64,000 nt of DNA from assembly GCA_008632985.1 (NCBI GenBank), contig QPGO01000042.1:1-64000 (forward strand), given 5' to 3'. This DNA is from Psammoneis japonica. Lineage: Eukaryota. Below the pieces are notes generated by a model that saw nothing but the letters and a program-made list of their open reading frames with translations, was not told the origin of the DNA and did no database searches. Positions 13,541 through 49,100 of this stretch are shown here, in pieces (within the stretch, counting starts at the first letter, position 1; the number at the start of each line of letters is the position of its first letter). A program made the translations under genes and the position numbers.

Positions 13541-14080
13541 GATGACCCGGTATTTGCGTTGCAATGAGAATCGGAATGCAAACGAACCACCCATCGGAAC
13601 ACGCTTCTTCTTCTCAAAGATCGGAAGTTTGTGAGGAAAAAAACGAACAGAATTCTTTAGAGTGACTTCTCTCGGCGGGCACTTCTTTTATAAAAAATTA
13701 TACAAAAAACCGTGAAATCTCCGAATCAGGAGGGACACTATAATAAGATGACGTGTCCTTATTCATAAGTACCACGTCTCATGTACACGTCACTTCAACA
13801 TTCATACTCCGAGTCTCCGAAATTCAGATATTCGAGTTCGTAGATAAAACATAATTATATACATACATCATCTTCGGCATTGAATATATTTGAATCTGGA
13901 AGTACGAAGTACGTACGTACTGTACGTCGCGAGAATTTGCGCGTAAGTCCACGCGCAGACAACGGGCGCACCCCATCAATCAAGCATCACGAGGCTGTCG
14001 TCAGCTGTCAAAAGCGGATCAATCAAACATCAATGACACAAGTGACACCAGCGATCTTGGTCCATTCGTCAGCAATCACC

Positions 14081-15473
14081 ATGTCGTCTCTCGTTACTCG
14101 ACGCCTCCTCTCCAAGAAGCTTTTGTTGCGTCAAGCGACAGCACTACAGCAGACACGTAGCCATCACCCTGATCCTTTCAATCCAAAGGTGACGAAAGGA
14201 TGGAAGGCTGCTCTCAAGGTATGTGCTCGCACTCAATCTTCGACATCATCTGTCGTTTGTTTCTCACATTATCATTGTTACTCACCAACGTGAATTTTTA
14301 CAGGAAGCGGATCTACCTCGCACCAAATTCGACCAGGAGATTGCCGAGGGACTCGAATTGGGTCTCCCCGGCGCTTCTTCGATCGACGACAAGACCATCC
14401 CAACATTTTCGAGGGGCGAACTACCACACTTTGCTGGAATCAACACGTTCCTCAAGGCTCCGTACGTGGAAGATGCCAAACTGGTTGGAGAGTATGATGC
14501 GGCTGTAGTGGGCGTTCCGTTTGACGGGGGTTGCACCTATCGTGCGGGAACGCGCTTTGGACCTCAGGGGATCCGCCGCATCTCGGCCTTGTACACTCCC
14601 TACAACTACGAAAAGGGTATTGACCTTCGAGAACAAATGACTCTCTGCGACATTGGAGATGTCTTTACTATTCCTGCAAACCTAGAAAAGAGGTAAGTAA
14701 GCCTTGCTCCTTGTTGCTTTGTTTTGGATTCGAAACGTTGTGCCAGCTAACTTGCCGTTTCCCTACGTCGTTGTAGCTTTGATCAAATCTCGAATGCAGT
14801 TGCTCACATTGCATCCACAGGAACAATGCCGATCATCTTAGGTGGTGATCATTCAATTGGATTTCCCACGGTTCGTGGGCTGGCGTCGGTGACCAGCAAG
14901 AACATTGGCATCATTCATGTTGATCGCCATGCTGATATCCAAGAGAAGGATCTCGACGAACGCATGCACACCACTCCATACTTTCATGCCACAAACCTAC
15001 CCAACGTTCGCCCTCAGAATCTGGTCCAAATCGGAATCGGGGGCTGGCAGGTTCCTCGCCCCGCTGTTCCCAACATGATTGAACGGGAGACGAACATCTT
15101 TACCATGGATGACATTGAACACTACGGCATTGACAAGATTGCAGAAATGGCTCTAGAGCGAGCTTGGGATGGCTGCGATGCTGTCTACATGAGTTATGAC
15201 ATCGACTCCATTGAAGCCGCTTTTGTGCCTGGTACTGGATGGCCTGAGCCAGGTGGTCTGTTGCCTCGAGAGGCACTCAAGTTGGTAGGACTTGTCGCTA
15301 AAGAAGGTCTTTGCGGCATGGAGGTTGTAGAAGTGAGTCCGCCGTACGATCATGCTGACATCACATCCTTGATGGCTCTTCGCATTGTAGTTGATGCCTT
15401 GGGTGCCATGGTTAGTCATGGAACGCTTGGAAAACACAAGGACATTATTGACAAAGAATTTGTGCCGTTTTAG
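14081..15473 (+). CDS. gdmH: Ureohydrolase of the Ni-dependent guanidine hydrolase (GdmH/Sll1077) type, with a mitochondrial-type presequence
   Basis: Introns are 14219-14303 and 14693-14776. Arginase-fold ligands are GGDHS, DRHAD and DIDS. Long stretches match my recollection of Synechocystis GdmH: IPTFSRGELPHxAGINTF, GTRFGPQGIRRISALYTPYN, DLDERMHT and PGTGWPEPGGLLPREAL. Confidence 0.8.
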
Positions 15474-16317
15474 ATGAAGCTCAAAGTAGTGGCTTCGAAC
15501 CCTTTAGATACCTCCATGATGTGAATTCGACATTACTCGTAAATACACACACACTATCTCTCTCCTAAGCATTACTTGGTTTTGGTTCTTTTTTATCTGC
15601 GTGCAGCCAGCAGCTCTACTCTCTATTAGAGAGAGCTTGGCACTCCTGCACCTGTGTTCACAAGAATGTTGGCCCGCTTGGGCAAATTTGCTCATCGCTC
15701 AGCCCACACAACACACAAGTTCCACTTCGTCATCACATTGTTACCTCTCCATTGTGCCAAGTGGCATTCTTGTCCAAAAACGAAGGTGTGAGCAGCTGAT
15801 TTGCTCTCTTTGCCTTTGGCTTTCAATTGGGAGCAACAATGATGTCTCCGACGAGAAGTCAACTCGCTTGGTTGGCGGTCGTCTTCCTGTTGCTGTTCAC
15901 CTTTTTAACAATCACTCAGTCCATTGGCTCATTTATCACCTCACCCCAACATGCACCATCATCAAACAACATTTTGGAGGACAGGTGAGACTGTGGCAGG
16001 GGGGCTCCTGTGTTGGGTGGGCTGGTTCTGGCTGGCAAGTTTTCATGTTTGGTTTGATGCCTTTGGACATGCCTCATCGTAAATTCTCAAATTTGGCATG
16101 CTGGTTCTCCCTGCAGCTCAGGAGAGTGGTTTGGCACCCAGCATGGTGCTGGCTTTGGGTCATCTTGAGCTCTTCTTGACATGAAGGCCAGGAACAAAGA
16201 GATGGAAAAGCTTGGAATCACAAAGGAAATGTTGGAGATCATGGTGGGAAAGTGCGTGTGGCTGCCTTGCTGGTGGCATTGATGGACTGAAAGTTGCACA
16301 AAGGAGAGCCTGGAAAC

Positions 16318-18946
16318 TCAGCAGAGATTTGTTTGCAAGTTAGACAATGCCGCTGAGCAATCATGCGAGAAAGCACAAACAGCCATCGTGTCATCTGTGT
16401 GTGGCCCCAAAAAGGTCTGGCGAGTTGCGCACATGTTGCCCACCATCAGCAAGCCACCATTTGACCCACCTTGTGCAGCAAGCTTTGAGGGCTTGCATGG
16501 CTTCTGTGATGCAAGGTGCTCAGCAATGGCAACAAATCTTTGCAGCTTTTGTTTCTGCTTTCTTTTGGTGCGGCACAAAACCTCAAGCAAGACAAGCACA
16601 TGTGAGAACACTGCTGGGGCAGACCAAATGTGCAGGGAAGTGGGGTTGCCTGGCAAACACACAGGATTTGCCTCATGCTCCTGGGGACTGAACTTTCCAC
16701 CACCTCTGACATTTGCCTCTGCACATGCACCACCACACTCAAGCTGTGCAATTCCAAATGAACAAAGTGGGAGACACAGTCACAGGTGAGACTCTTCCAA
16801 AGAAGGCTGCACAGAAACAAATCTTGCGGGATGACAAACAGCAATCACTCACCGGCAGCAATGTGGTGCAAACAGAGAGCAATTTCAAAGCCACTGCAGC
16901 AGCTGTGAAGCAATGCACAGGTGTGCTGCCATCCACCACAACTCCTTTCTTCTTTGCTGAGAAGCAAGGTGCTTTTGTCCCATCCTTGCCAGTCGCTGTT
17001 TCCTGAGCAACTTCCAGATCAGAAAAACCATGTTGCGATGACAGGGCTTTTTTCTCCTGCATGTGTGGTTCAAGACAGTCTTTTTCTGGCTGTCCACCTT
17101 GAGATCCAACATTGCTGCAATTTGCCAAGCAGAGCTCACTTCACTGTGTGTGTCAACTTCCAGGGAGCCAGCAGAACTCACCACTTTTTTCCATGTGCAT
17201 TGACTGGAACAGGAATGCCAGATTGAGTTGATGCTGCCAAGTCACCCCCTGCCTTGCACGGAGCAGATCAACTCTCTTGGATCTTGTGGAACTCAAGCTT
17301 CAACTCTTGACATTGTCCAACAAAGACAGGACAAAACAGTTCTTTGTCACAATGCAGTTCTCAATGGCAGCTCTGTTGCCAGGCTTGAAGACAACATTGC
17401 AGGCACAGGCCTCCTTTCTGTTTGAGAGCAAATCCTTTGCACACACTGACACAAAGCACTGAGCCCTGCTTGCAATCCTCCTTTCTCAGAACAGGCTCCT
17501 GGTCAGATTGTAGATGGATGATCAACACATTGCCAACAAATGTTGCACTTGCATCATCTTGAACACATCAAGCTCCACAAAGTCTTGTCCTCTGCATTCC
17601 TCTGGCTGTGTTTTTCATGTCATCTGGAGCCAACAAATGTTCAAACTGAACTGTCTGAACCCATTTTTCTTGTCAGTGCAGAAAGTTGGTGCATGAGGGT
17701 GCACTTCATAAATTGGCCCTCCACAATGCCGCTGGTCATGCGCACGCACACTGACAGAGACATCATTTTGCTCACCCTCAACCACAACAAGGGCATCCTC
17801 CAGGTTCATGCCATGGACCTGCTTTCTCACTGCACGAGGGCATCCAGCCAGAATCTGTCAAGCTTTCTTCTCCAAAGTCTGTCCTGCTGACAAGAACAAT
17901 GTTTCTGCTCTTGCAGCTTGTTCTGGTCTCAGCGTTGCTGACAATGGAGGGATCTTGTTGTTCTGCAATTGGGAAATCACCTTCAAGAGGATCAAACTCC
18001 TCAACATGCACAGCTTTGGATCCACCTTGAGAGAGTCTCAGAAGTGACCAAGTCACCCGTTGGCCGTTGTTTGAAAACCAGTGGTGTGCTCCAGCCAGTG
18101 GTGGGTGGCACTGACCCCCTCCAAACCAACAACATGTCATCCTTTTCAGCGACAGTTCATCAACATCTGCAACAGTGCTCCACTTGTGGTTTGCAGAGTG
18201 GCAGGTTTGCATCATCATCTTTTGCCAAATTCCTTTGGGGTTCTGCAATTTGCACCGGGTTTTCAGAAAAGTTCAGAGCTGGAAATCATTTGATGCATGT
18301 CAGTGAGGAGTGCACAGTTGACGCTGCATTGCCCTCAAGTCCTTCCTGAAGTTCAGCAAGGAAAAGGGGCTCCCCCACTTCTGCATGGCCACATTGCCCA
18401 CAATGAGAGATGTGTTCTTCACTCTCAAGAGCTGCCAAAACATGGTCATGCTTGCCCACGCAGTCAGATTTGTTGAGATTGCCCAGAGCTTTTGGGCACT
18501 TTTCATCAGCTGTGTCTGCAACATGTTTCCATGCTGAACCAGAGTGATGCTTGTCAATCATTGAAATTTCCATGTCTGCTCAATGTTTCTGCCAATCTTC
18601 ATTGTGCATGGATGTTGACTCTGTTTCTTGACAGTTGTCAAGTCACAAACAACCAATTTTTTTGCTTGTTTCAAGTCACCAGTGTTGCTTCTTGTGACTG
18701 CATTTCTAAACATAAGTTTGCGTGCATTTTTTGAGTGCATGGTTGACGCTGCATTGCCCTCAAGTCCTTCCAGAAGTTCAGCAAGGAAAAGGGGCTCCCC
18801 CACTTCTGCATGGCCACATTGCCCACAATGAGGGATGTGTTCTTCACTCTCAAGAGCCACCAAAACATGGTCATGCTTGCCCATGCAGTCAGATTTGTTG
18901 AGATTGCTCAGAGCTTTTGGGCACTTTTTATCAGCTGTGTCTGCAA
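16318..18946 (-). pseudogene. Prolyl oligopeptidase (S9A) pseudogene, main body
   Basis: Degenerate motifs are GGSNGGLLM (catalytic Ser), KDGTKAPCF, LSQGGSKAVHVEEFD, TDFGEESLTDSG and VLAALESEEHI. There are many frameshifts and stops. Confidence 0.85.
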
Positions 18947-19157
18947 TGTGTTTCCATGCTGAACCAGAGTGACACTTGTCAATCATTGAAATTTCCATGT
19001 CTGCTCAATGTTTCTGCCGATTTTCATTGTGCATGGATGTTGACTCTGTTTCTTGACAGTTGTCAAGTCACAAACAATTAATTTTTTTCTTGTTTCAAGT
19101 CACCAGTGTTGCTTGTTGTGACTGCATTTCTAAACTTGTTAAGTTTGTGTGCATTTT
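18308..19157. repeat. 425-bp tandem duplication spanning the pseudogene/transposon junction
   Basis: gttgacgctgcattgccctcaagtcc occurs at 18317 and 18742. Confidence 0.92.
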
Positions 19158-19399
19158 CCCTTCTCCTTCCATTTGCAAGCTGTTTCCCTTCTGTTTTGCT
19201 CTGTTTCTGCCAAATCTGTCCTTTTTTCCCCACTGCACACACCACAAGCTGTCCCCTGACCTAAAATCTGCCAACACGGCAATGGCACACCCCTGTTGCA
19301 ATCCACTTTGTCCTGGTTAGATGTCTGACAACAACAAAAATGACCAGTGTGCTCTCTGCTGACATTTCCAAAGGTGTCTCCAGTGTTCTTCTTTCTTCC

Positions 19400-21560
19400 A
19401 GCATTTGGGCCTTGACAATGCATCCTCCTCTCCCAACCACTCCCTGAGTGACAATGGTGCCTCCAGCTCTTTTGATGCATCAGAGCCTCTCAACATTCCC
19501 TCAATTCAAGCACTGGGATTCATGTCCCTGTCTCTTCATGATGGTGATCCATTGTGCCTTTGCCTGGATGCCAGTGATCAAGAGTTTCAACCATCCACCC
19601 ACAATGATCTTTCCTCCGATGAATTGCCAGGGGGGGGGGGGGGTTCTTTAACAACAAAGGGGTCAATTCTCATCATGCACCACAGTGCAGAAGAACTTGG
19701 TGTTGGCTCTCTTGTTGCTCAAGACCCATCCAATGATGACATCTGCTGCAACAATGTCCTTTTCCCAGAGGAGGAGTTCAATGTTCTCTCAGCACAATGT
19801 TCTCTGTGTCATCCTCTTCTCTCCCCAACAAGGACAAAGACAATGATGGTTTGCACTGCAGATGGAAGAAGCTCAGCTGTTGCAACTCCATGCATTTGTG
19901 AAGCCAATGCTGCCAAGAAGCTTTGCCATGTGGAGGAAGAGTTGGCTGTGACAATGAAGAAGCAACATCTCTCCCATGGTTTGCACAAGGCTTTTTTTCT
20001 TGGGCTGGACATGCCTGTGGACTGTGAGTGCAAGTCTCCCTCCTGCTCTGCCACCTTGTGATGTGTGAAAGCCAAGCATGCCAATTGTGTGGGCCCAGAG
20101 CCCATTTGCTCCACAGTGCATGTGGGACCCAAGTTCCCCCCAATGCGTGTGCACCATTTTTCCTTTCTGCATCATGTGAGAAGGGTGCTCCGTGATCCCC
20201 AGGTTGTCCAGTCAGTGGTTGCACCATGAGAAGCACTGGCCCAAAACAAACAAGCACATTTGTGGCTCTCTCAACACTGGAGACTGGTGGAAGCAAGCAG
20301 AGCATGATCTCAAATGTTCCCTTGATGAACTGGGCAATGGCTGCCCCTCTGGGTCACACTTTGTTTGCCCAGTTGTGCTGTTTGACAATTCCACCTTTTG
20401 TGTCAACACAGGTCATGTGCAAGCAAACCAGTTCTTGCAACATTCAGAGAGCGCTTTTCTTGGTCTGGACTTTCTTGTGCACATCCAAGCTCCACAGCTT
20501 TCTTCACTTCCTTTTTTACATTCATCATTGCGGCAATGCCAACATTTTTAGGGTGGATTTTGTGAAGCTCTTCTCAAGATGCTTTTGAAACAAACTGCTA
20601 AAAACGCTGGTCATCAGCAAGATGTGCCACACCTTGATGTGTTGAATCACCACTGCAAGGACCTCATGGCAAGGGAATCAGAGAAGCACTTGCTGGAGGC
20701 AGGTTGGCTGCATGCACAAGAGGATGAGGCTCCTGCACCTCAATCATCAAATTGTGGATGCACAGACCCTGCCGTCGCTGGATTCAAACTGTGTGAATCT
20801 GCAATGATGGCTGCTCAGGCTGCAAACGTGGATGACAGCAACACCACATTGCCTGTAAAATGCAGAGACAAGCAGCTGCAGACACTGTCACATCCATTTG
20901 CTCCAGGCCATCATGGCAATGAGTGGTTTGCATCCTTGCTGGATCATGCAGAACATTGCAAAGCCTTTCCATTGATGTTGTGAACTTTCGCTTTGGATGT
21001 GATGCTCCAGGCCAAGCCAATGATGAACATGACATTCTAAGATGCCACCCAAACTTTCACCCCCATCCTTGGGAACAAAGGAGTTGGCATGACTGGGCAA
21101 TGGTGAACTGGGATGAGAACAAAACAAGCCATTTGGTCAACATGACATTCTAAGATGCCACCCAAACTTTCACTCCCCTGTCCTTGGGAACAAAGGAGCA
21201 GGCATGACTGGGCAATGGTGAACTGGGATGAGAACAAAACAAGCCATTTGGTCACAGCTCATGTGTTGTTGCAGGCAACCTTGAAAAATCAAACGATGCA
21301 ACACAAATCCACAGTTTGTGCAATCCAGTCACTTCAGAGCTTTGCACCAACCAAAGATTCACTTCTGACCTTTTTCTTCTGTGATGAAACAGAGTTGGGA
21401 ATCAGAGTTGTTGATGCTTCTGAGATTGTGTTGTCTGCCACCTTTGTTCTTCCATCAATGAGGTTGCCACAAGACCCCAGTCCAGTGCCCAGCAAGAAAT
21501 GTCCCAAAAGTTTGTCAACCAAACACAACAGACTTGTTCATCTGAGCAGCCAATGATGTC
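19400..21560 (+). pseudogene. Plavaka-like transposase remnant
   Basis: Motifs LNTGDWWKQAE, FVCPVVLFDNSTFC and CHPNF...WHDWAMVNWD resemble Plavaka transposases. The sequence is fragmented and the boundaries are approximate. Confidence 0.6.
21026..21254. repeat. ~113-bp tandem duplication
   Basis: aacatgacattctaagatgccacccaaactttcac occurs at 21026 and 21139. Confidence 0.9.
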
Positions 21561-24500
21561 AAATGGAGTGGGATCCTGGAACAGCATGCTGCAGCAATGT
21601 GCGACTGTCTGTGGTTAACTCGTGTGAGTTCTTTGGCAAACATGTGCTGGCAGAGATTGCAGCCGGGGGCCAACTCACTGTGGATTCCATGGGCTCCATT
21701 GCTGGCAAATTCTCAACTGTTTTCATCCTGTTTTCTTCCTGAAGGAACTGCCAAGCCATTCAAAAGCAGCCAATCAACAAGCAATGAATGAGATGCTTGG
21801 TCTCTTGGGAAAGCCTCTGTAGATCAGTTCTTTTTGCTGGCAACTTTCTTTTGTGTTCCACCATCATGCATGACACTCACCCATTGAGGATGGTGAAGGG
21901 ACCACATTCTTGATGGTGCAACTCTCCATTCTTTTTTTTAACACAGCATCATTGCCATTGTGTGCAGTGCACCATCCTTTGGAATTTTTGAACAGCTGGG
22001 CATTGAAGCACCAAAAACATGTCATGACGGCACGGTGAGTGAGGAAATCACCCCACTCACCATGCCATTCCACAGCACAGCACTTGCATTGTTGAAAGTT
22101 CTGCACATGACAGTGGCAATTCATGCAGCTGCATTCATGTGGAACAAGGGTGTCAAGAATCCTTTCTTGCATCGTTCCAAAATGTGTGTGGTGGCAAATG
22201 ATGTTTTTTCAGACAGACCCATGCAGCACTGGTCCTCTGGCAGTTTCCTCCAAACATGCATCAGTTGTGCAAGAGTGCAGTCCTCTTCATTTGGATTTAG
22301 TTAGAAACCTTGTGCCACACCATCAACTTTCACATGTGTTGCAGACAATGCAGTGGCTTGTGACAACAACACACATGTTTGTGTCAATGAGTTCTCCTGT
22401 TTGCATCAACGAATGTTGCCATTGAGTGTGTCATTGTTTGTTGCAGAGGATTGACTGGCTGGAATAAAAACATCCAAAAATCTTTCTGCAAGGTTGCTGT
22501 GCTCTTGCTGGCATCTTGTTGAGATCAAATGAATGTGTGGAGCAGTTGCTGCATTGCTGCTGCTCTCTTGTCATTGTCTCGTTGAGAATGTGACAACAAA
22601 AGTTTCACTGTCCATTGAGAATGAATGATTGACAACAGAAAAACCAAATCCACAGCTCAAACAGCCAGCACACCACCTCAACCAATGCTCCAGAGTCAAG
22701 TCAGGCCAGTGCAGCAAGTGCTGCTGTTGCATCTTCACTCCTTCATCCACACAACAGCAGCAGAATGACCATGGATAAAACAAACTTGGACAAGTCTCCT
22801 GAGTTGGCTGTCTTTTTGGATGACAATCTTGACATGCTCAGCCTGGATGGTGCTGATTTGTCAAAGGATTCATTGATGCCGTCTCCATGCAAAAGAAATC
22901 ATGAGTGTTGGAGGACATTGTTTGCCTCACCAGGTGATGCTCATCTGTCAACAGATGCCATCCTGTCCCCCCCCCCCCAAGTGTTGGTCATCAAGCAAGG
23001 AACCTCCAGCAACCAAGTGGATGGCTGTGTCAAGCAGATCCCCTCCGAGGGGAAAACATCCACACAAGAGTGGCCGTTGCCCCTTTTCACCAATGCTGCT
23101 GCACTGTGCAATCATCCAAAAACAGTAGAGCACTGTGCCAAAACTCTGTTTTTGGAGGACAACTGCATGTTTTTCATTCAAAGCAACCACAAGCAGGAGC
23201 TGGACAACACAAAGTTGGACAAGACGTTTGAAGTGACACACCGTTGGTGTCATCTCCAGTGCTTCTGGTGCTGCCACAGTCTTTTTGCAATCATGATGAA
23301 ATCAGCTGTTTGGACTTGGATGACTCCTCCTTGCAGGATGCATTGGATGGGCTGTTTCAGCCAACCAAGAAAAGTGCAGCTGCAATGGATTGAAAGGAGC
23401 GGTCTGCAAAAAGGAGGAAGGCCACCAACCACCAAGGTGCAAAGGAAATGCCAAGTTCATTTTGGCAACCAGAACAATGCAAGGTTGAGTGGCCCCATTG
23501 TGCACACTCCCAGAAAAGCAGACATGGGTGGGCTTGGCTCTGTCAAGCTCATCCAAAAGCATTTGGAATGTGAGGAGGACAAGGAGATGGAAAAGAGCCT
23601 GCCAGGTGCATTGTTGAGAGCTCAGACAAGGCAGTGCCAAACACATTCTGGAAGGCTTGGTTTGTTCACAAAGAGTTGATGGAGTGGCACAAGAGGTGGT
23701 GGGCAACCACCAGCAGATGGCAAAAGAGCCACCCAATGGAGATGAAATGTCATGCTCCATTGAGGATGACAACCTGCACACCACTCTCCTCACCATTGGA
23801 AGTGGCTGTGGTGGTGGGGTTGCTGGCATTCACATTGACATGCAGGGTGCATCTGTGGGATGAAGGGGATTGCCAGACTTCCATTGCAACCTCACCGACA
23901 ATGCAAACATTGCCTTCCTTGCATGTGTTCCAGTCAGAAGAGGTGTGTTGCAACCCATCTTGGTTTTGCAATGGGCAAAAACCATGACCAATTTCTGTGC
24001 AGAATCATTTTGTCATGGAGCAGCTCATGTGGGGACTTGCCTCACTCATTGAACAACTTGTTTGTCCGTGCAAGTGAGTTGAACAAATTGCTCAGGCCCA
24101 AGCCAGAGTGGATTGGCAATTGCAGCAAGAATGGAAAATGTGTTTTCCTTGCTTGGCACACCAAGCAAAACTTGCCAATGGTGCATGCGATAGATGAGGT
24201 GCACCAAAAAAAAAAACATGGAGCCTCATGTCCACTCATGATGAAGATTGGCAACAGACTGAATCAAATTCAAAAGAACAGGAATGAATGGTGTGACACA
24301 AGCAGCATGAGCTCTGAGGAGGATTGGATCCATCTGTGTGAGAAGTTGGGCAGGATGGAACCAGCTCATGACTGTGGTGAGGAATCCAAAATTTGGCAAC
24401 TTCAGGAAAGGCAATCATTGCAATGACAGTGCATGTTGTGAAGTGCAGCTGCAGACAACAGACAAGGTCACTGCAGTTGGAACATTGCAAGTGGACATGG

Positions 24501-24834
24501 CCAAAATGCATCAAACTCCAGTGGATCCATGAGCCTCATTGAACATGTCATCGTTGTCTTCCACAGAATCCTCTGGCTCCTCTGGCTCCATTGCATCCAG
24601 TTGCAACTTGTTGTCCTGAACAGAGGGTGGGAAATCAACTTGATCAACCAGGGCCAGGTTGCTGTTGCCTGTTCCCTCATTGCATGACAAAAAATCAAGA
24701 GTTGGTGCAATCAGAGTGTCCATCGTCAGAGCAGCTGAACCTGCATTTGCGGCAACAGCTGGCTGACTCAGTTCCTCCACCTCCAAATTGTTGTTTGATG
24801 AAACAAAGGCAAGCCCATGCCCTGAGTTGGGGTT

Positions 24835-25314
24835 CCCAGGCTCATTTGGAGCACCATCGAATGCCCTGTTGGAGCTGATGACAATGTTGCAACACCTCAT
24901 GAAATGTGCAATGTCCGGGGTGGCATGCTTCTGCTTGGATTTTGCCAACAGGACATTGGCAATGAAATGACCACCAAAACATGTGCATTCTTGAACAGCA
25001 TCCTGAGCAGCTGGATTGCTGCTTTCAGGTGCAGAGCTGGCACATCATCTCCATGTTTTGCAGGCCATCAATCACCCAGGCTCATTTGGAGCACCATCGA
25101 ATGCCCTGTTGGAGCTGATGACAATGTTGCAACACCTCATGAAATGTGCAATGTCCGGGGTGGCATGCTTCTGCTTGGATTTTGCCAACAGGACATTGGC
25201 AATGAAATGACCACCAAAACATGTGCACTCTTGAACAGCATCCTGAGCAGCTGGATTGCTGCTTTCAGGTGCAGAGCTGGCACATCATCTCCATGTTTTG
25301 CAGGCCATCAATCA
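24835..25314. repeat. 240-bp near-perfect tandem duplication
   Basis: cccaggctcatttggagcaccatcg occurs at 24835 and 25075. I noticed only one mismatch between the copies. Confidence 0.95.
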
Positions 25315-28127
25315 GATCATCCTCATGATGCCAGGACACACTGGTGAGGAGAAACTTGACAGCAATCAACTGGGTGAGTGCCTCCTGCATCATGGCGCTG
25401 TCTCTCCATGCAGTGGGTCACAGTCAGCCCATTGTTCTTGGCACAGCATTTGGTGACTTTGTTGTGGCTCTGCTCATGGTCTTGTTTCATTGGTGTTCAA
25501 GGGTGACAAAGGCAGACAGTGGCAGCAACAACAGGCAAGAACAAATCCACCCACAGAGATGGAACCATTTGTCCAAAGTGGAAGGCAGTGCAGAGACAGG
25601 CTGCATCACAACAATGCACGACAGTGCTGTTTTCCTCATCTGTCAATTCAAAGCCGGCAGGAGGGTTGTTGAACAAGTCAATGGGAGCATGCTGACCTGC
25701 AAAAGACAGATGAACCAAAAAGCTGTGGTGAGTGGTGCAGAGAACATTTGGAGAAAAGAGGGAAAGGAAAATGGCATCAACTTCAATGCTGGGGTTGGAC
25801 CCCTCCATGGCATTTTCAATTTGTTGAATGCACCATCAAGGACACCAGGAAACAAGGTGCTGTTGGCCTTTGGCAGTGGAATGTGATTGATTTGTGTTCA
25901 AAGGTGGGGTGCAAAGGCATTTCATTCTTGATTCATTGAGTTGAGGGCTGAGGGGCCAACCTTTTCCCAAAACTTTTGATGAACTTTGGATTTGTTGAAT
26001 TTGTTGTCAGTTGTCAGACTTGTCCTTGTCATTTTTTGGGTGTTTTGGGAAGACAGCTCCCAAAACATCCTTGCTGCAAAGGGACATTTGGAGGTCACAC
26101 CAGCATTCAGGAGTGAGTGGAAACTCATGGTGTTTTCTGTCTCTTGTTTGGACAGAAAACCAAGAGAGAATGGAAGAGCACAACCTGGCTTCAAGTTGCT
26201 CACTTTCTTTGTAAGGTTGGTCTCCAAAGATGTCATTTCACTGGCATGAAAGGCTGTTTCTGAGTGCACTTTTCCTGCAGCTGCTTGCACATCTTTTGTT
26301 TTGGTTTTGCAAAGGCCATGCATCCACCAGCGAAACAACAGCCACGTTCTGCAATCATCACCAGATGGTTCTTTTGGGTTGATGCCACAGGTGGCGTGGT
26401 GCTCAGAGGCTCTGAGCAGCGTGGGAGTCTTGCAGGAAGGGACTTTTCATTGCGCTCCTTGAGAAAGTTGAGATCTTCTTGTTGATCTGCAGGGAAACAG
26501 TTGTCCGACATGACGCTGTCGGAGGTGTCAGCTTCTTCATTGATGGAGGCTGCAGCAGCTGTGGCAGATCCTGGGTCACTGGCCCATGGAGCAGCTTTGG
26601 ATGAAGAGCCTTGATGTCACCAAGGGCGCTTGTCCTGGAGCCTTGCCTGGGCTGCCTGGGAGGACCTTGACCTTGCGCTTGAGCACCGGGAGCACCACCT
26701 CCACCACAGCCACCTGCGGCACTGGTGCAACTGGTGCTGTTGCAGCCAGCACCTTGTGGGTTCTGCTTCTTCCCTTTTCTTGGCAGCACAACTGGTCAAT
26801 GAACACACCAAATGGCAAAAAATGTTGGTTGAGGTCCCAGAGCCAGAAGTGTGCAAGCACCAGTGTAAAAATTTCAATCTTGACAAGAACACATCAATGT
26901 GATGAAATCAAACTCCTTGTTGAAGCAACACATGATGTGTGACATTGATGACCAAATTGTTGATCAAAGTTGTTTCAAATCACTCAAACCATCAACATGA
27001 CACAAACATGGGTTTTTAAACAAAATTGTGTTGCTGAAAAAGAAACACTGATGGAAATTAACTGACAGACAGGCTCTTCATTTTGCCCAAAACACAAATT
27101 GTTGCTGCTCCACAAGACACAAAAATGCAAACACAAGTTGCATCCAACATTTGACAATGAGAGCAGTGGGGACAGGCAATGGCATTGCAGAGGGAATGGA
27201 GGAAAATGTGGGACACAAGGTGAGAAAGAGAAGACAAGTGGCGAGTGCACGGAGCTCTGGCAAATGATGCAAGTGACCAGCACTTGTGCAAATCTTTGCA
27301 CACAGACATCTGGACTCGCAAAATGGAGGATGGGCAGCAGGGAGGGCACAAAGGTGAGCAGCAACAGAGTGTGAGACAAGCTTGCAAGAAACACAAGACA
27401 TGCAAAAATCTGATCATGCACGAAGTTTTCTCTTGTTGCAGCAGGCAATGCTTTGGCCTGCCAAACATGAGGAATGCAATGCAAGACAGATCATTGCAGG
27501 ACGATGTCATTGCCTGGTGCAGATGATCATGGAGAGAGCAAGCACAGGATCATGGAGAGAGCAAGAGTGGGATCATGGAGAGAGTGAGAGTGGTTGCAAG
27601 GGAGGGCACAAGGACCAAAACAGGACACCCATCATGCAGGGACTGCAAAGGATGACAGGAACTGGTGCAATGCAGATGAAAAACAAGGGTGGGAAGAAAG
27701 AAGCATTTTTTGTGCTCAGCAGTGCAGAAATGACAAAACAGAACATTTGCAAATCAGACAACAAGCAGCACACAGCCAATGCACAATCAGGCTGACAAGA
27801 CAATTGAACTCCATCATTGTCAGAAATGAACAATGTCAGAAAGTGGTTGTGAACACATGGTTAAGACAGAAAAAACATGCAATTGACAAGTTTCGTTGAC
27901 TCTCATTTCCTGCTAAAACCAGTGTTAAAATGAGCAGATGTGAGAAATTGTTGAGAATGTGTGCATGATGAGACTGATTTACATTGCTGTTAAATCCCAC
28001 TTGGAAGGTTGAAGAAAATTGTTAAAATCCCTTTGTTGACAACAAGCACATGTTGAGAATGCAGGATTCTGAACAAGAGTGTGAGAATTCTGAACAAGAG
28101 CCACAACTTTTTCCAGACGTGACTGCA

Positions 28128-28312
28128 CAAAGTTTGGTGTGGCTCATCACTCTCAACTTCCTCAAGACAAAGGTGTGGGTCTTCACTTGTGTTGTCTGCA
28201 CCAACCATGTTCACGACATGCCTGACAAAGGGTGCTGCACTGTTTTTTCTGCCACACTGTGAGAGGCTTTGACCAAAGTTGATGCAGGCAAGAAATGAGC
28301 TGCACTGTTCAT
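28128..28312 (-). pseudogene. Displaced 5' end of the prolyl oligopeptidase pseudogene
   Basis: EDPHLCLEEVESDE resembles the conserved S9A N-terminal motif (E)DPY.WLE. Confidence 0.75.
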
Positions 28313-28349
28313 TGTGGTGCATTTAAGCACACAGTTATGAAGAGCCTGT

Positions 28350-29750
28350 AAAGAATGGAAGGGGACAGCAGAAGGAGGCACGGCAGTGGCTGCAGTGACG
28401 GTGGAGAGCAGAATGGAGCAAAAACGCTGGATGTGTGGTGTTTGGTCAAAGGGACAGGGGATGTGGGAGCAGGAAGGGTCAAAGTAAATCGGAGGGCATG
28501 CACAGAGAGGTGGAGGACCACATTGCAGCCAAGGGCTTGGAGAGCCCATTGAGACAGAGAGGCAGTGCAGTGAGTGTTGCCAAAGCGGTTGGAGGACAGA
28601 CAATGCCATGCCTGGTCAGCCAATGGGAGAAGAGCAGACGGGGAGGACGAGACGCAGAGAAAGGCGGAGCAGGAGGCATCAGAGCATTGAAAGTCAGAAG
28701 GAGAGGACCAAGGAGGCTTGGGTTGAGACCGGATGGAGAGGCGAGTGCAGAGCCAAAGGGAAGGCAGCAAGCAAAGAAACCAAGACTGCCCAGGCGATCA
28801 ACAGTGAAAGGGAGAAGGAAGATGCCGTCATTGTTGAGCAAAGCAACAACAAGGGAACCATCAGCAGTGGAGGTGGAAGGGCCAAGAAACTTCAGTCTCG
28901 CACTCGCATGGTGTGCCTCAGTTAATTTAGGGGAAGAGGGAGCAGCCAGACCAAGGGGAGGGCAAGAAGGAGCTTGAGGTGCATTGACATCAATCGTGAT
29001 GCAGTGATGGTGGGAAGGGGCCAAAAGCGAGGCAGGGAGAGGGGCAGACATGCCAACGTCGGCAGGGCGAAGGAGGGGCCGGGAGGGGGGAGCAAATTGA
29101 GGGGTTCAAGATGGACATCTGCAGAGGAGTGGCAGAGCTGAGCAAGAGGCCCCAAAGTTTGGGCCAGGATGAAAAGGGTGTCACAAAGGCCATTGGAGAG
29201 CTTGGATTTGTGAGCGCCTTGGCAAGAGAAGGCTTGATTGCCACAGGCGTCATGGGTGGCATGGCCGCAAGAGCAGGGTGTGTTGACCAGAGAGGGGGGA
29301 AGAATGGGGAGGCGGAGTTTACATTGGATGGCAATGATGCAGACATCAGAAGAGAGGCAGGAGCTTTGAGAGCGATGGGAGAAGGAGTGGAGAGGTGGAC
29401 TGGCAAGGGGAGACAGCAACGAAGGCAAGGAGACTTGCACATCAGAGGGAGCATCAGCAAGGGTGGAGGCAACAAGCTGTTGTTGATGGTCATGACATGG
29501 CCAATGAGCCAAGCCAGGAAGAGTGGTGCAGATTTGACCAGCGCAGCTGGGGAGGCGGGAGAAAGGGTGGAAGCGGAGTCAAGGATCGGAGCACAGCGGC
29601 GGGTCAAAGCCGTTGCAGCCACCCAGAGTGCTCCCAACTTTCACAGGATGCGTTCCACTTGAATGTTTCACGAACTGCCTTTGCCCACAGCCTTGAAACC
29701 GCAGACGCGCATTGAAAATGAGACACAGCATAATCAGTGCACTCTGCCTC
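28350..29750 (-). mobile_element. 5'-truncated non-LTR retrotransposon remnant with a zinc knuckle and restriction-like endonuclease (CRE-like)
   Basis: Fragments include PCSCG...G(H)AFSC, RPADVG, ITIDV and LLPFTVDRLGSLG. The sequence is frameshifted and the boundaries are approximate. Confidence 0.65.
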
Positions 29751-30139
29751 TTCTGTTTCTCGTGCCACGGAGTGTTTTGGTCGCGGATTACGTCGACATG
29801 GTGGCGGTTTGAGTGCCGGCAAGTGCAGCACTAAGAATCGCACGTCTGACCGTTCAGTCGTGCGTTCCTCGCTGTTGGCTAAATTTTGTCAATGGTAGGT
29901 CTAGTAAAACGGCATCTATGAAGAATCTATCTAGGTGACGGAATTAGCGTGCCGAATGTGAAGAAGTCGCTTTAAATTTAATACAGTAAATGCAACCACA
30001 TAGTCAACAATAGTTTACACGACACTTTCAGCTTTGCGAAGCTTGTAGAACGCGCACGGACCATTATCGACCAAGCCTTTCGCAACGCGAAATAGAGAGA
30101 AGCTTTCCATGAAACCCTTAGGAATCTGAAGGAATGAAG

Positions 30140-30940
30140 TTAAGACTTAGGCGCATTTCGTTGCGTTGGTGACAGTCGAAAAGCTGGTGAAATGTCCGCA
30201 GGGTCAGTCACGTTGCGTTGAGCTTTTGCAGCGTTACCCCACCATTCCAACTGCGAAAAGCAACGATCCGCATAACTGTCCCACTTATCTTTGTTGTCTT
30301 CACCCCCTTGCACGCTTCCATCCTCCTCAAACACGTCTTGCGCAAAAGGAACATGAATCATAGCTGAAACTGGCAAGCATCCTAATTCGGAAAGGATGGG
30401 TCGTAGAGCAGAAGCAGCTCGCGTACCACCCCACTGGCCAGCCGAGTACGTTACGATTGCAGAAGGCTTAAAGCCAAAGATGGAAGATCCGAAATGATTC
30501 AACACGTTAAGAAGTCCCGGAGAAGGTGCATGGTTGTACTCAGGGGAAATTGCAACGTAGGCATCAGAAGATTGAAGCAACGCGTGAAGACGATCCAATT
30601 CGGGAGGGACCTTGCTTCGTGCATAGGCAAAATGAGGCTTTTGCAACAGAGGGAGATTTATTTGTCGTGCATCCAGTACGGTGACCTCATGTCCACGCTG
30701 CTCTAACGAAGACTTCACAAACTCATGCACTCGTGGGCCCAGAATTTTGGGTGGGCCGTCGGTGCGGGTTGTGCCCGTAATAACAGCAATATTTAGAGCA
30801 TGAGAGGAACGACAAAAAAGGGCAACAGCTAGTGCCTTTCTAGTACGGCGACTTTTATTCCCCATCGCCCGATGACGAAACATTGTGCAGAGACGGTGGG
30901 ACACGGCGCCAAAAAATGCTTTGCGCTGTGTCAAAATCAA
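30140..30940 (-). CDS. NADPH-dependent FMN reductase (flavodoxin-like fold)
   Basis: IAVITGTTR, SPEYNHAPSPGLLN and YSAGQWGG motifs. The start is uncertain (possibly 30883 or 30865). Confidence 0.88.
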   Translation of the reverse strand: MILTQRKAFFGAVSHRLCTMFRHRAMGNKSRRTRKALAVALFCRSSHALNIAVITGTTRTDGPPKILGPRVHEFVKSSLEQRGHEVTVLDARQINLPLLQKPHFAYARSKVPPELDRLHALLQSSDAYVAISPEYNHAPSPGLLNVLNHFGSSIFGFKPSAIVTYSAGQWGGTRAASALRPILSELGCLPVSAMIHVPFAQDVFEEDGSVQGGEDNKDKWDSYADRCFSQLEWWGNAAKAQRNVTDPADISPAFRLSPTQRNAPKS

Positions 30941-31280
30941 GAGAACCCGGACGTTGAGAAAGCTTACTTCCGCAAGATAGACCTCTACTCTAGACTCTAG
31001 AGTAGTAGCTACTACTAGCTAGCTAGAGTAGCTACTCTAGAGTAGAGAGTACTTCTAGCTAGCTCTCTAGAGAGTAGTAGTAGCTACCATAGAGCCTACT
31101 CTAGCTAGTAGTAGTAGAGCTCTATGGTAGCTCTACTCTACATATACCGTAGTAGAGCCCCCTCTCTAGCTATTAGAGTGGGTACCGTACTGCAGCTCAG
31201 CTGGAAGTAGCTGCTAGAGAGTGACTGTGTGCAAGAGCTTTTCTGAAAATAGTGCCACAGGTCGGAATAGAGTTCTCGAT

Positions 31281-32426
31281 TCATCTGTATGTTGAACATT
31301 CTGGCGCACAGCATGGATTGATACATCCTCGATCTTTCCCATTTTGAAAGTAGTTCTCCAATAACCCTTCACGTTCTGGCGAGAGCTCGTTAGGAAGTGT
31401 CCCACCTCTGTCGAAACCTTCAGCGATTTCGTAGAGAGCGTCATCGAGACTGGACATCAGAGGATCCCAATCAGACTTTGAGTGTTGACCTGTATTTTGT
31501 TTCGCCGCATTTTTCTTTTTTATCGTTGCAGGCAGGGTTAAATTGAATTGATCTGCAAATTTGTTCAAGGACGCGTCAAATTTTTCCAGGAATAGAATAG
31601 CCGAGAAACGTCGAAGCCTGCCCAGCGTGTATGAAAAGTCCTCTCTCGAGAGCTGAAATTTTGGTATTTGTGAACAACGAAAGCCACATATCATTCGCGT
31701 GTTCCAGTTATCTGGCTGTTTGCTATACCAATCGCGAAAGGTGTCGTCTCTTTTAGATCCTTTACCTATTGTTCTCATTCCTGCTGTTCGGGGTAGGGTT
31801 CTCATGACATGGCCATAATGAGAAAAGTACCGATCACGAGAGTTTCTTAGAGTCACCGTATAAAAGTAGCTTTCTGTGTCCATCGCTTCATACATCTCTT
31901 GCTCACTTGCAACAAAGTCAAATTTCGTAATATTTGCAAACGATCTTTGTGCTTCGATTGTATCATCACCTCCGCAACAGCGTTGGTCCCGCTGGACGTT
32001 GCAGTTCTTTTTAAAATTAGCACTTATCCCAGCATAGTTCATCAAAACACACATTTGTGTTCCACCCGACTTGTGAATATGTAGATAATAAATAACCTTT
32101 TCTGTAGCCCTTGTTCTCTTCAATCCACGTGAATCCAACCGGGGTGGTCTTCTCCACGCCCGACCGGCACGACGCATGGAAATCTCCCGAGGCTCGTTGT
32201 CTTGCAGAGAGAATCTAGGAGGCCGACGAGCGTTCTCCCGAGGCTCGTTGTCTTGCAGAAAGAATCTAGGAGGCTTGCTTATCGGCTTGTTTATTGGCTT
32301 GACTATTGCCGTGTCCTCCCTGTCCTGTAGAAAGTCAACGATCGCCATCAACTCCTGAGTTTGTTGTGTGATAGAATACAATCCAAGAGCCGGAAGAATC
32401 AGCAAGCACACAGTAAAACTCCGCAT
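31281..32426 (-). CDS. Type II membrane sulfotransferase-like protein
   Basis: It has an N-terminal anchor, a 5'-PSB motif (YLHIHKSGGT) and a 3'-PB-like motif (LRNSRDRYFS). A 51-bp stem duplication lies at 32183/32234. Confidence 0.75.
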   Translation of the reverse strand: MRSFTVCLLILPALGLYSITQQTQELMAIVDFLQDREDTAIVKPINKPISKPPRFFLQDNEPRENARRPPRFSLQDNEPREISMRRAGRAWRRPPRLDSRGLKRTRATEKVIYYLHIHKSGGTQMCVLMNYAGISANFKKNCNVQRDQRCCGGDDTIEAQRSFANITKFDFVASEQEMYEAMDTESYFYTVTLRNSRDRYFSHYGHVMRTLPRTAGMRTIGKGSKRDDTFRDWYSKQPDNWNTRMICGFRCSQIPKFQLSREDFSYTLGRLRRFSAILFLEKFDASLNKFADQFNLTLPATIKKKNAAKQNTGQHSKSDWDPLMSSLDDALYEIAEGFDRGGTLPNELSPEREGLLENYFQNGKDRGCINPCCAPECSTYR

Positions 32427-43066: not shown

Positions 43067-43243
43067 CACGAACTGCGGAAGAAGAGCGGGATAGAGCGAC
43101 TGGTGCATATTGCATATGTTAGAAACAGTGGCAAGGGGGAAAATGCCGCTGGTAGGCTGCTATTTATAACTGTCGTTGTTTCAAGGAGGTACTCTTTCTT
43201 TCCACCAAATAGTTAGAGCTATTCTGTAGTAGAGACGTCGGCT
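43067..43243. repeat. ~177-bp dispersed direct repeat, copy 1
   Basis: Aligns without gaps to 49266-49442 (cacgaactgcggaagaagagcggg...gtagtagagacgtYggct). Confidence 0.95.
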
Positions 43244-46184: not shown

Positions 46185-49100
46185 CGGTATATTTTCAACG
46201 GGGCATCATCATGGTACAAAGATCCCGTGAAAATTGTACGTGGGCAGAGGATTGGGCGGGTGTACCGGTTCAACGCAGACCTACAAGGGCAGCGCTTTTG
46301 GTGCGGCACTAATTCCACGTAGTCTACGTGGGCGGAACACGCCAGCCGGCCATTTCTCGCGGGCGCGACGATCATTGCTCACCCAAAATCTCAAACCGCC
46401 GCACCGCCTGCCTCTTCGATCGCTGCAAGCACCATGTCATCTGCCTCCCAAACCACCGCCAACGCCAGCAGGAAGCGTTCATCGGATGCTGGCTTGCATC
46501 ACGGCAGCAGCATCGCTGGCGCTGCCATTCGTCGTCGCACCGGATTGTCTCCGGGCCGTTTCGCCCATGTCGGATCGTCTCCTGGAAGAAACGGCCATGC
46601 TGCGGACGGAACAAACAGGTGTCAGACACCAGTTTCCCAGCGTTTTTACAGCAAAGCAATCATGTGACAATTTCGCACAATTTCAAAAAAAGATGAGGTT
46701 GAACCGAAAAATGCGACAGATGCTCACAAAAGTGCGACGCAACACGAGAAGCGACAATGGCGTCCATGTGGGGATGAAAACAACATCCACACTAATTTGA
46801 GGCATGCATGCATGACAATGCAAACGCAACAAATTTAACTGATGCACCATTTGGCTCACTCGTGTCCGTCCAAGTGCTCCAATCGACCATTCGAGATGAC
46901 GCCATTGTCATCAATGTTCCGCACAGTTGCTGCGCGTAATTCACGTAGAAAATTGCAAAAACAGCTGGTGACAACGACGCCCTGAATTCAACTGCAACCT
47001 GCATGCACGGTCAATGTGGGCACATGTCTGCAATTGTCGCCTGCCAAACGACACGTCTGGCGCATTAGTTGCGTGCAAATTGATCAATGGCGTCACCGGT
47101 GGCACGCCATTGTCAGCATCGAATGCCGTGCAAAAAGCACGGGGAGGACAGAAATCGACTCTTCTGTCGCATTTGTCTGTCTGTCACCCGTTTGTCTCGT
47201 AGAATCTACGTGAAAGTTCCCACACTTTACGATCTGTCCATGCTGACATTGTCATCTGACAACTGTTCATTCCTCTGACAACCGTTTGTTCTGCGCGTGG
47301 CGTGCCATCTCGTCTCCTGGAAGATCATCATCTTCTGTGTTTTCGAGCCGCATGGCCGGCTTTGCTGGCCTGGACAGCACAAATGAAGACAACAGTCTCT
47401 TCGACGCCTCTGTGCCGCTTGCAAGCCTCGAGTTCCAGACTTCGGGGCAGTCCAACGTTTCATCTGCCCTCGGAAGCCTGATTGACGGGAGCGTTGTGGA
47501 CGACGCACGCGACGATCAAGTCGAGCAAGACGACGGTGAGCAAGACGGTGAGCAAGTCGATGAGCAACAGTCCGTGTTGTCAGAAGTGGTCGCAGATCTC
47601 GCCACGGAGCTTGTCACCAAGTTCTTGCCGAATCGAAAGAGCACGTTCGCTCTGGTGGGCAGCGACTGCTTCGAAAAGGAGCTGTGCCGCATTGCGGATT
47701 TCAACGCCGCTCCAGTTGCAGAGGACCATGTCAAGAGGATCTCTTCATCACCTCGAAACAGCCTGATCGCCCGAATGGGCCTGCCAAACATGCAGACCGA
47801 CGTTGTTGTTTTGACTGCGAATCAGGCGAAGTGGGAGAAGAATGCCAAAACCTGCAAGGAGAAGATTGCGTCCTGCATCGAGAAAGAGCACCTCCTTGCT
47901 CCTTTGCTCGAGTCATCCCATGAAGCCTTGAAGGAAGCAAACGAAAGCCATCAGGCTCTTCTCTTGAAGCAAAAGGCACGTGTCTCCGCCCGCACGCAGT
48001 GTGAGGAGCATTTCAAGCGCAACAGCCGCCGGGCGAAGCTACGAATTGTTTTCAAATCTTTGAATTCAATTTTTATGGATGATTGCAGACCAGCTCACAG
48101 ACTTTTTCTTTGCTTGACTCCAGTGGTCCGAAGACGTTGAGATGAATTTTGTCTGCAGCAAGCTGTCTTTGTTTTCCTACGAAGATTGCATGGGCATGGG
48201 TCGGGACGAGGCGTGCGATGTGGTTCGCATTTGTCAGGTCTTCCGTTACGAGAAAACCAAGTTTTTCCGTGCCCTTTGGAGATTTCCCTTGGAAGGCTTC
48301 ACTCTAGAGTCGTGGATGGACACGCATGGCAACCAACCAGCCCTCCAGGCAGGGAAGGGCAATTTTTCCTCACTCTTCGTAAAAGAGCGAACGGCCCACT
48401 TTCTAGGATTCCCCACTCCCAAACATGTCAGGGCTTGCCGCGAGAAGGCAGCCAACGCATCCACCACTGCATCGACCAGCAACGAGGCCGCTGTGGCCAC
48501 CACCGGGTCCGCCACTGCTTCGACCAGCAACGCAGCCACCAACGTTTCTATCGAAGCCCAGCTCAATGACATGGATCAAGGGGGGCTTGATGCTCTCATC
48601 GCCAAAGCCATTGCAAAGAGGCGTGCGATGGACCAACCCTCCACAAGCGACCCATGAGCTCCACCTGTCTCCCTCTGGATGTTTGAGCTCCTCCGACAAC
48701 ACTGCCAAGCAACGCTGGCACGCAAGTGACGTAGAAGACAAGAACCAGTCTCTCACTCAGGCTGGGTCCACTCCACAGCTCCAGCAGAAGACACCATCTC
48801 ATTGCACAGTCCTCACAAAGATCGTATTGCTGTATGCTTGTTTCTACAACAACTCCAAAATTATTTATTTCTCCCGACTACAGCAAAATTCAATCCATCA
48901 TCACCGTCGTCAGCACCGAGTTATGTGGAATTGTCGCACCATCCGTCCCTTTGACACACCACGTGAGTTCCAGTCGGGTGGCAATCCAAACACTGTCCCC
49001 GAGTTCCGTGCCATCAGTGTTCCAGCAAGTGCACGGGCGATCCTTGACCAAAATGCGGATGGTCCGTCCAATGCGTCTCAGTCTTTCCGTCACCAAGACT

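Follow-up and report, generated by a model that had tools for sequence, protein, structure and literature searches.

We analysed a window of 64,000 nucleotides (nt) from the diatom Psammoneis japonica (contig QPGO01000042.1, positions 1 to 64,000, assembly GCA_008632985.1). Within this window lies an island of about 14 kb in which the dinucleotides TpA (TA) and CpG (CG) are largely missing and CA and TG are strongly enriched. The original prediction, made from the letters of the sequence, had described near-total loss of TpA and CpG, saturation with CA/TG and sharp edges. Change-point analysis of the dinucleotide densities bears out this description and delimits two nested domains (o/e, ratio of observed to expected):

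15630-29785, no strand: TpA-purged domain (the island), Poisson two-rate change-points; TA o/e 0.05, CA and TG o/e 1.84 and 1.73
15885-29540, no strand: CpG-depleted domain nested in the TA domain, change-points; CG o/e 0.16

The Poisson change-points place the edges of the TA domain within 15630-15760 on the left and within 29690-29895 on the right, and the CG edges lie about 250 nt inside the TA edges, left and right alike. Between the TA edges (14,130 nt) we counted 49 TA, where flank density predicts 569, and 134 CG in place of a predicted 817. Every 1-kb window from 16001 to 29000 contains 0–7 TA per kb (o/e 0.00–0.13) and 3–18 CG per kb (o/e 0.06–0.30) at a CA/TG o/e of 1.5–2.06. For ordinary 1-kb windows of the flanks the o/e ranges from 0.36 to 0.97 for TA and from 0.60 to 1.20 for CG, the minimum of 0.60 belonging to the window 15001-16000, which straddles the left island edge. 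The longest run free of TA extends over 2021 nt (24191-26212). Complete absence of TA had been claimed for 16343-17510 and was found there, with one TA at 16341 and the next at 17511.

GC content is 0.44–0.51 in the island, the same as in the flanks. In comparison to the flanks the island has 36.9 TA and 48.3 CG per kb less, and 41.4 CA and 39.0 TG per kb more. The gain in CA+TG (+80/kb) therefore balances the loss in TA+CG (-85/kb), as predicted if TA and CG had been converted to CA/TG from a flank-like start. AA, AT and TT are not depleted (AA o/e 1.16 in the island vs 1.12), which excludes a general GC-biased conversion as well as activities that hit AA. Flank DNA outside long open reading frames (ORFs) has a TA o/e of 0.79 and a CG o/e of 0.98, whereas the TA o/e within ORFs is 0.54. 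Non-ORF DNA is hence the TA-richer fraction of the flanks, and a genome-wide equilibrium of neutral DNA is not sufficient to account for the island. The surviving CG sites (15885-29540) show a spike in their spacing at 160–180 nt, with 44 pairs vs about 22 in the adjacent bins; nucleosome-like periodicity of these sites was not significant, the best Rayleigh power being 4.7 over 65 periods.

The TA-purged DNA is without the stop codons TAA and TAG, and TGA is the sole remaining stop. Long ORFs overlap in several frames and on both strands, and 64 ORFs of at least 100 amino acids (aa) overlap the interval 14000-31500.

The sequence of the island is real. A public sequencing run, X1, contains 93% of the words sampled from 20000-26000. 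One X1 contig covers 15665-18377 with 0 differences to the island at a depth of 67.5, contigs of the flanks having a depth of 58–60, and four shorter X1 contigs match parts of the island with 0–1 differences. Exact agreement over such lengths, in k-mer contigs of single-copy depth, speaks against a base-calling artefact. A further run, X2, comes from the same sample and is transcriptome-like in that a contig skips two GT..AG introns of the left flank gene. Over the island, transcript-like contigs represent a diverged paralogue only and give no evidence either way on expression of the island. Within about 25 nt of the left TA edge the public-run contigs break, one ending at 15654 and the next starting at 15665; a repeat boundary or a polymorphism are possible causes.

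Contents of the island and its flanks

The contents of the island are best explained as multi-copy repeats together with one dead copy of a host-type peptidase gene, located in the nuclear genome. The following features were found:

16405-18522, minus strand: near full-length pseudogene of a Peptidase_S9 (prolyl-oligopeptidase-type serine peptidase), identified by Pfam in one ORF (PF00326, E 2.4e-7) and by tblastn
18308-19157, plus strand: direct repeat pair D1 (18308-18730 and 18733-19157), 94% identical, copies differing by CA<->TG doublets
18706-21241, no strand: multi-copy unclassified repeat block, summed contig depth 380–883 vs about 60 in the flanks, no Pfam family
23144-29483, no strand: multi-copy unclassified repeat block, summed contig depth 200–1345
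24826-25344: weak Cation_ATPase_C-like ORF (PF00689, E 2.6e-4, 21.3 bits, below the cut-off of 27.3 bits)
24835-25314, plus strand: 240-nt tandem duplication, 239/240 identical, inside the Cation_ATPase_C-like ORF

The peptidase pseudogene carries frameshifts and in-frame TGA stops, and its alignment runs across three frames. By tblastn with 56 homologues, each 500 aa or longer, as queries, it corresponds to residues 79-663 of P0124, a homologue of 793 aa. It is low-copy, as beside the exact contig we found one diverged paralogue only, at about 83–88% identity. To the two repeat blocks (18.7–21.2 kb and 23.1–29.5 kb) 1025 contigs were aligned, 516 of them at <90% identity. Single-copy sequence that is continuous with the flanks is also TA-poor, both from 15665 onwards and in 29184-29731. 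The 239/240 identity of the tandem duplication at 24835-25314 indicates that it is younger than the purge.

We searched 189 ORFs of the island against Pfam (90 of at least 75 aa from the whole island and 99 of 45–74 aa from 18501-29800) and found no transposon or viral domain among them. The protein that can be recognised in the island is of the host type, a prolyl oligopeptidase, and does not come from a transposon. Scans of viral contigs with 22633-23676, and with 47349-48137 from outside the island, found nothing, and a degenerate 39-nt pattern for other copies of the repeats gave 0 matches in metagenomes. For the ORF 21146-21553, which adjoins a WHDW motif, a search among longer proteins gave no homologue. 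The peptide HPNFH..PWEQRSWHDWAMVNWDE (21046-21254) is encoded in a short tandem duplication (21013-21139 and 21125-21254); in the original prediction it had been taken for a decayed HPNY/WYDW motif, and no homologue was found for it.

On both sides the island is flanked by genes of ordinary composition, and a tandemly repeated gene at the start of the window served as a control:

14024-15525, plus strand: arginase/agmatinase family gene of the left flank (PF00491, E 3.4e-59), introns 14216-14302 and 14690-14775
30140-31018, minus strand: NADPH-dependent FMN reductase family gene of the right flank (PF03358, E 2.7e-25), TA and CG normal
1-2943: CBS-domain gene with a tandem repeat of about 1050 nt, 95.6% identity over 1892 nt, TA and CG normal

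In the arginase/agmatinase gene TA and CG are normal to within about 100 nt of the island edge. The tandem repeat of the CBS-domain gene is untouched, and being repeated is hence not enough for a sequence to be purged. The flank genes in general are compact and intron-poor and include those for a DUF3172 plastid-type protein and a BT1 transporter as well as a fused purine-synthesis gene. In the DUF3172 protein the signal peptide is succeeded by Phe, which we take to be the mark of targeting to a complex red plastid. For a myosin encoded in the flanks the best identity was 67% among at least 120 matches; of the matches listed, two carried an organism name, and both of these are diatoms (Pseudo-nitzschia multistriata and Cylindrotheca fusiformis). 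These features agree with a stramenopile alga, most likely a diatom.

Direction, context and timing of the changes

The paralogue of the peptidase pseudogene was found in both the DNA-like run X1 and the transcript-like run X2 and allowed us to assign a direction to the changes. From about 130 differences between island and paralogue, 36 were listed and grouped as follows (paralogue -> island):

TA -> TG: 7
TA -> CA: 3
CpG -> TpG/CpA: 4
one TG/CA doublet: 2 positions
transversions: 7
other transitions: 13

The reconstructed stretch of the paralogue has 11 TA and the island 1; 10 of the 11 TA sites now read TG or CA. Among the A/T->G/C transitions 10 of 16 fall at TpA, compared to about 13% of A/T positions that lie in TpA, and changes are hence enriched at this dinucleotide. 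For the pseudogene, the intact relative is also not equally TA-poor, as the paralogue keeps both TA and CG.

The protein alignment shows the same polarity. Tyr residues of P0124 align in the pseudogene to Cys 12 times, to His 4 times, to Tyr once and to other residues 10 times, a tally in which the high-scoring segment pairs partly overlap and some positions are counted twice. In the five columns with conserved Tyr (Tyr in at least half of at least 8 homologues) the pseudogene has Cys in three, Trp in one, Leu in one and Tyr in none. For comparison, Tyr of the flank myosin aligned against 56 homologues is matched by Tyr 1126 times and by His 14 times. A replacement of Tyr by Cys or His had been proposed from several motifs in the island. 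It holds for the pseudogene in comparison to P0124 (SYKS->SCKS, PYF->PCF, GYPR->GCPR, VYVEA->ACAEA). The motifs WHDW (~21085, plus strand) and DPH (~28181, minus strand) are present in the translation, but no homologue showing a former Tyr was found for either of them.

Repeat copies were compared in the same manner. At 19749 and 19766 the window has the C of a CA where other genomic copies have T, giving TA (3 and 2 contigs, respectively). The two D1 copies are distinguished by 4 CA<->TG doublets, 3 differences of CG against CA/TG, 2 of TA against CA/TG, 4 other transitions and 3 transversions. Altogether CA<->TG doublets account for 5 of 22 difference events in the island repeats (D1 4, D3 1), compared to 0 of 84 mismatches in the CBS-gene control repeat. 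Doublets of this kind are expected when an ancestral TA or CG is resolved separately in each copy, and the island was therefore mutated in place, after duplication. Paralogue, Tyr replacements and repeat doublets support a TA -> CA/TG direction on both strands, in agreement with the original prediction. A rate of TpA loss comparable to or above that of CpG decay is likewise supported. In the saturated sequence of the island CA and TG follow one another at random (runs test z -0.29, dispersion 0.83–0.99), without strand-clustered tracks, which indicates that the strands were hit independently, site by site.

To describe the sequence context we compared strand-symmetrised trinucleotide densities between island and flank. 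The ratios (island/flank) fall into clear groups:

TA trinucleotides: ATA 0.03, GTA 0.04, CTA 0.06, TTA/TAA 0.26
CG trinucleotides (four): 0.11–0.20, with TCG/CGA 0.11 and the others 0.16–0.20
trinucleotides without CA/TG: 0.77–1.28
CA/TG-containing trinucleotides: TCA/TGA 1.30, others 1.54–1.84

Most of the TA surviving in 15742-29731 (43 of 47) is located in TTA or TAA, compared to 655 of 1874 in the flanks (binomial p 8e-16). With V for A, C or G and B for C, G or T, the density of TTAA changes from 1.5 to 1.0/kb, that of TTAB/VTAA falls to about a quarter and that of VTAB to 0.0–0.2/kb. This is most simply explained if a strand can mutate only where the T of TA follows A, C or G (A before C, G or T). 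The polarised set includes three half-blocked sites (TTAC twice, CTAA once), a small number, and all three were altered on the strand that this rule allows. All four NCG contexts are depleted by 76–91%, most strongly where T precedes the CG: the density of TCGA drops from 5.3 to 0.1/kb, that of GCGG from 2.7 to 1.0/kb. TC outside CpG is barely altered (TC o/e 1.01 vs 1.14).

A second domain with loss of TpA but not of CpG

Change-point analysis identified a further domain in the window; of the two copies of a direct repeat, one lies at its edge and the other outside:

46330-49360, no strand: second TA-depleted domain with normal CpG, change-points; TA-free in 47228-48040 (812 nt)
43067-43243 and 49266-49442, plus strand: 177-nt direct repeat, 88.7% identical with 20 mismatches, copies 6.2 kb apart

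The domain contains 6–12 TA per kb vs about 45 per kb outside, amounting to 34 TA in 3.1 kb, at a CG o/e of about 1.0. Elsewhere in the flanks TA-free gaps extend over 241 nt at most. In the 177-nt repeat the copy at the domain edge (49266-49442) has 6 TA and the outside copy (43067-43243) 14, while CG is present 8 times in each; in all 8 TA differences it is the outside copy that carries TA. The context rule is weaker here than in the island, with 17 of the 34 survivors in TTA/TAA (p 0.07). The three ORFs of the domain are without a Pfam family, and for the ORF 47349-48137 no homologue at E <= 1e-3 was found among proteins of similar length. One ORF of this domain comprises 297 codons and contains no Tyr.

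As the second domain lost TA and kept CG, the two losses are separable. A coupling of TpA loss to CpG loss, which the original prediction had implied, is thus not obligatory.

Proposed process, known systems and alternatives

Recently, TpA-only hypermutation (TpA->TpG/CpA) of silent integrated viral DNA was reported for mutation-accumulation lines of the rhizarian alga Bigelowiella natans (bioRxiv 10.64898/2026.01.13.699255, 2026). According to the main text of this preprint, 231 of 302 new single-nucleotide mutations were located in two integrated viral regions, corresponding to ~6e-7 per site per generation and to a de novo rate about 1000-fold above background. Of these, 230 of 231 were A->G or T->C, all on TpA per the authors, and they arose in bursts and in some lines only. 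DNA adenine deamination by an ADAT2-like enzyme is put forward there as the authors' hypothesis only, and the ADAT2 enzymes of amphioxus and trypanosomes are cited as deaminating both A and C in DNA. The words CpG, trinucleotide and diatom are absent from the main text. A process of this kind can consequently no longer be called undescribed, as had been suggested for the island, since the preprint reports TpA-only hypermutation and proposes the same candidate, a DNA adenine deaminase. For diatoms, no report of TpA loss was found among the papers listed in searches of open-access literature and bioRxiv, and the excerpted texts of PMC9998398, PMC4504042 and PMC2806351 do not mention it.

The footprint threshold used for B. 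natans requires three or more successive 1-kb windows, each having a rho TA <= 0.43 and a rho CA+TG >= 1.52 (same preprint). This threshold picks out the island over 13 consecutive 1-kb windows (16001-29000), in which TA o/e is 0.00–0.13 and CA and TG o/e are at least 1.50. Apart from CG, only TA-containing trinucleotides are depleted in the island, which corresponds to the TpA-only pattern of B. natans. In both organisms A:T->G:C changes at TpA lead to TpG and CpA on either strand and in discrete regions, and CpG involvement is not needed, as seen here in the second domain. In contrast to B. natans, a rhizarian, the host here is a stramenopile. Furthermore, the island is saturated (TA o/e 0.05 vs rho 0.45 for the nucleocytoplasmic large DNA virus region of B. 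natans), it shows accompanying CpG decay, and it consists of a host-type pseudogene and unclassified repeats, whereas the targets in B. natans are recognisable viruses. The trinucleotide rule seen here (VTA hit, TTAA spared) is not part of the preprint's main text.

We consider it probable that two context-specific transition processes have acted on the island in place and to near saturation, the first being a B. natans-type defence on silenced DNA that probably works by adenine deamination. This first process would be a TpA-specific A:T->G:C hypermutation that converts TA to TG or CA, with either strand affected independently at each site. Its target would be VTA (equivalent to TAB on the other strand), leaving TTAA nearly immune and TTAB/VTAA half-protected; the domain to which it is confined has edges sharper than about 130 nt, and CpG loss is not needed for it. 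The second process would be ordinary CpG->TpG/CpA decay of the 5-methylcytosine (5mC) kind in a slightly narrower, nested domain. Composition, polarity, the trinucleotide rule, mutation in place and after duplication, confinement to a region and separability of the two losses are seen in the sequence itself. Beyond this, we infer that the first process is of the same kind as the hypermutation in B. natans and acts on silenced DNA as a genome defence. Chemically, the adenine of T-A-B in DNA would probably be deaminated to inosine by an ADAT2/TadA-like or other nucleic-acid adenine deaminase.

The original prediction had called the process RIP-like, after fungal repeat-induced point mutation (RIP). 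Both are local, proceed by transitions almost to saturation, inactivate repeated DNA and extend into neighbouring unique sequence. However, RIP changes C->T at CpA and thereby makes TpA and AT enrichment, whereas in the island TpA is destroyed at unchanged GC content, so that the view of a process opposite in polarity to RIP stands. In RIP, moreover, the two duplicated copies are both mutated. In the present case the paralogue is intact and keeps TA and CG, the unique edges are purged, and the 95.6%-identical tandem repeat of a live gene, the CBS-domain gene, is spared, which argues against duplication sensing and thus against the term RIP-like. A domain defined by chromatin or silencing would fit better than duplication sensing. 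In line with the earlier expectation, the purge is confined to a silent-looking block of repeats and pseudogene.

CG->TG/CA changes in all four NCG contexts of the island resemble CpG decay driven by 5mC, and diatoms are described as methylating transposon CpGs (PMC2806351, PMC9998398). Decay of 5mC, however, cannot remove TpA, and the second domain lost TpA alone; as proposed before, the TpA process is therefore distinct from 5mC deamination. Diatom DNMT4 enzymes group with fungal RID and are listed as of unknown function (PMC9998398). A TCG-biased RIP-like hypermutation has been described in basidiomycetes (PMC3318451). Similarly, CG loss in the island is strongest in TCG (0.11 vs 0.16–0.20), but this bias is mild, all CpG contexts decay, and TpA loss does not belong to the basidiomycete process as described in that source.

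Precedents for T->C or A->G at TA motifs are found in two other systems. Very-short-patch repair is thought to deplete CTAG in Escherichia coli and acts within CTWGG. DNA polymerase eta is responsible for WA-motif mutagenesis in somatic hypermutation (W, A or T), but it also mutates AA, which is not depleted in the island.

Several points weigh against the reading of the island as a target of B. natans-type hypermutation by adenine deamination. All evidence comes from one 64-kb window and was obtained by composition and sequence comparison. The polarised set represents a part of the differences between island and paralogue, and the ancestral state was inferred from the paralogue and from distant homologues of about 30% identity. 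Run X1 is possibly derived from the same sample as the assembly, and its platform is not on record. The island has no viral or transposon domain and is in part a host-type pseudogene, whereas foreign origin is central in B. natans. With regard to the chemistry, adenine deamination is only one way to arrive at A:T->G:C at TpA. As TA reads the same on both strands, the attacked base, A or T, cannot be identified from composition. In addition, known ADAT substrates include those with A at +1, so that protection of TAA is not predicted. We rank adenine deamination first, a thymine-side attack or repair bias second and a dual A/C deaminase third. The first rank is based on the hypothesis made for B. 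natans together with the U33-A34 context of ADAT/TadA substrates.

If the same regional TpA process attacked the thymine or a mismatch, a modified T of the 5-hydroxymethyl- or 5-formyl-uracil type at TpA in silent chromatin might mis-template G, or over-active correction of T:G/A:C mismatches might resolve replication errors at TpA towards C:G, comparable to very-short-patch repair at CTAG in E. coli. Owing to the palindromic nature of TA, the context data fit T->C at VTA equally well, and the random interspersion of CA and TG resembles a symmetric mark that decays slowly, each site by itself, more than it does processive tracks of an enzyme. Nevertheless we regard this as unlikely, though to be taken seriously: our literature search gave no thymine modification for diatoms among the matches listed, which were all on dinoflagellates, and the bursts in some B. 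natans lines, as given in the preprint's main text, suit a regulated enzyme better than a constitutive repair bias.

It is quite improbable that one dual-specificity, ADAT2-like deaminase makes both TpA->TpG and (T)CpG->(T)TpG, with the CpG loss not being due to 5mC. TA and CG losses share nearly the same domain, CG loss is strongest after T, and both deamination activities on DNA are on record for the ADAT2 enzymes cited in the B. natans preprint. On the other hand, the second domain lost TA at no net loss of CpG and the CG domain of the island is the narrower one. Likewise, the depletion extends to all four NCG contexts, TC outside CpG barely changed, and CpG methylation of diatom transposons is described as established (PMC2806351, PMC9998398).

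ADAR-like A-to-I hyperediting of transcripts of the repeats, which would then be reverse transcribed and reintegrated or would serve as templates for repair, has very little probability in our view. A->G changes with a 5' U preference are typical of RNA adenosine deaminases, and much of the island is multi-copy. Against this, AA is not depleted, hits on the two strands are equally frequent and lie intermingled over tens of nt, the low-copy pseudogene and the unique edges are purged, and the sharp domain edges do not match the repeat ends. To our knowledge, ADARs are confined to animals.

An inherited composition, from a foreign source poor in TA and CG, or selection against TA and CG is hardly credible: the absence of detected relatives for the repeats and for the ORFs of the second domain would allow it, but the paralogue and other repeat copies keep TA at the same sites and CA<->TG doublets separate the copies, conserved Tyr is replaced in a frameshifted pseudogene, an outcome not expected of selection, and the CA+TG gain balances the TA+CG loss. 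Just as implausible is a sequencing or base-calling artefact on modified DNA, for which platform and origin of the supporting run leave some room, given exact k-mer contigs of up to 2.7 kb over the island at flank depth, the frameshifts of the pseudogene, the doublets between copies and a paralogue with normal TA in the same runs.

Returning to TpA-specific hypermutation on silenced DNA, the island appears to be a saturated long-term footprint of the kind of process seen in B. natans, and a second case of it, in a stramenopile. New in comparison to the preprint's main text are the trinucleotide rule in which TTAA is spared, the separability from CpG methylation decay and the collateral loss of a host gene copy. 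For genome annotation, TA-purged DNA is a trap, as stops restricted to TGA give long spurious ORFs, which are a possible source of 'orphan genes'.

More tentatively, and with less confidence than we place in the processes themselves, TpA-directed hypermutation may be an old genome defence common to stramenopiles and rhizarians. It would be VTA/TAB-specific and independent of cytosine methylation and would saturate whole chromatin domains including trapped host genes, and its effector would be a natural A:T->G:C editor of double-stranded chromosomal DNA. Such an activity on chromosomal DNA would be of interest to research on genome defence and base editing. If the island is indeed a second case of the process, TpA hypermutation would not be peculiar to one rhizarian alga but would also occur in the lineage of the diatoms, which are major primary producers with many sequenced genomes, and these would offer a second system for finding the effector.

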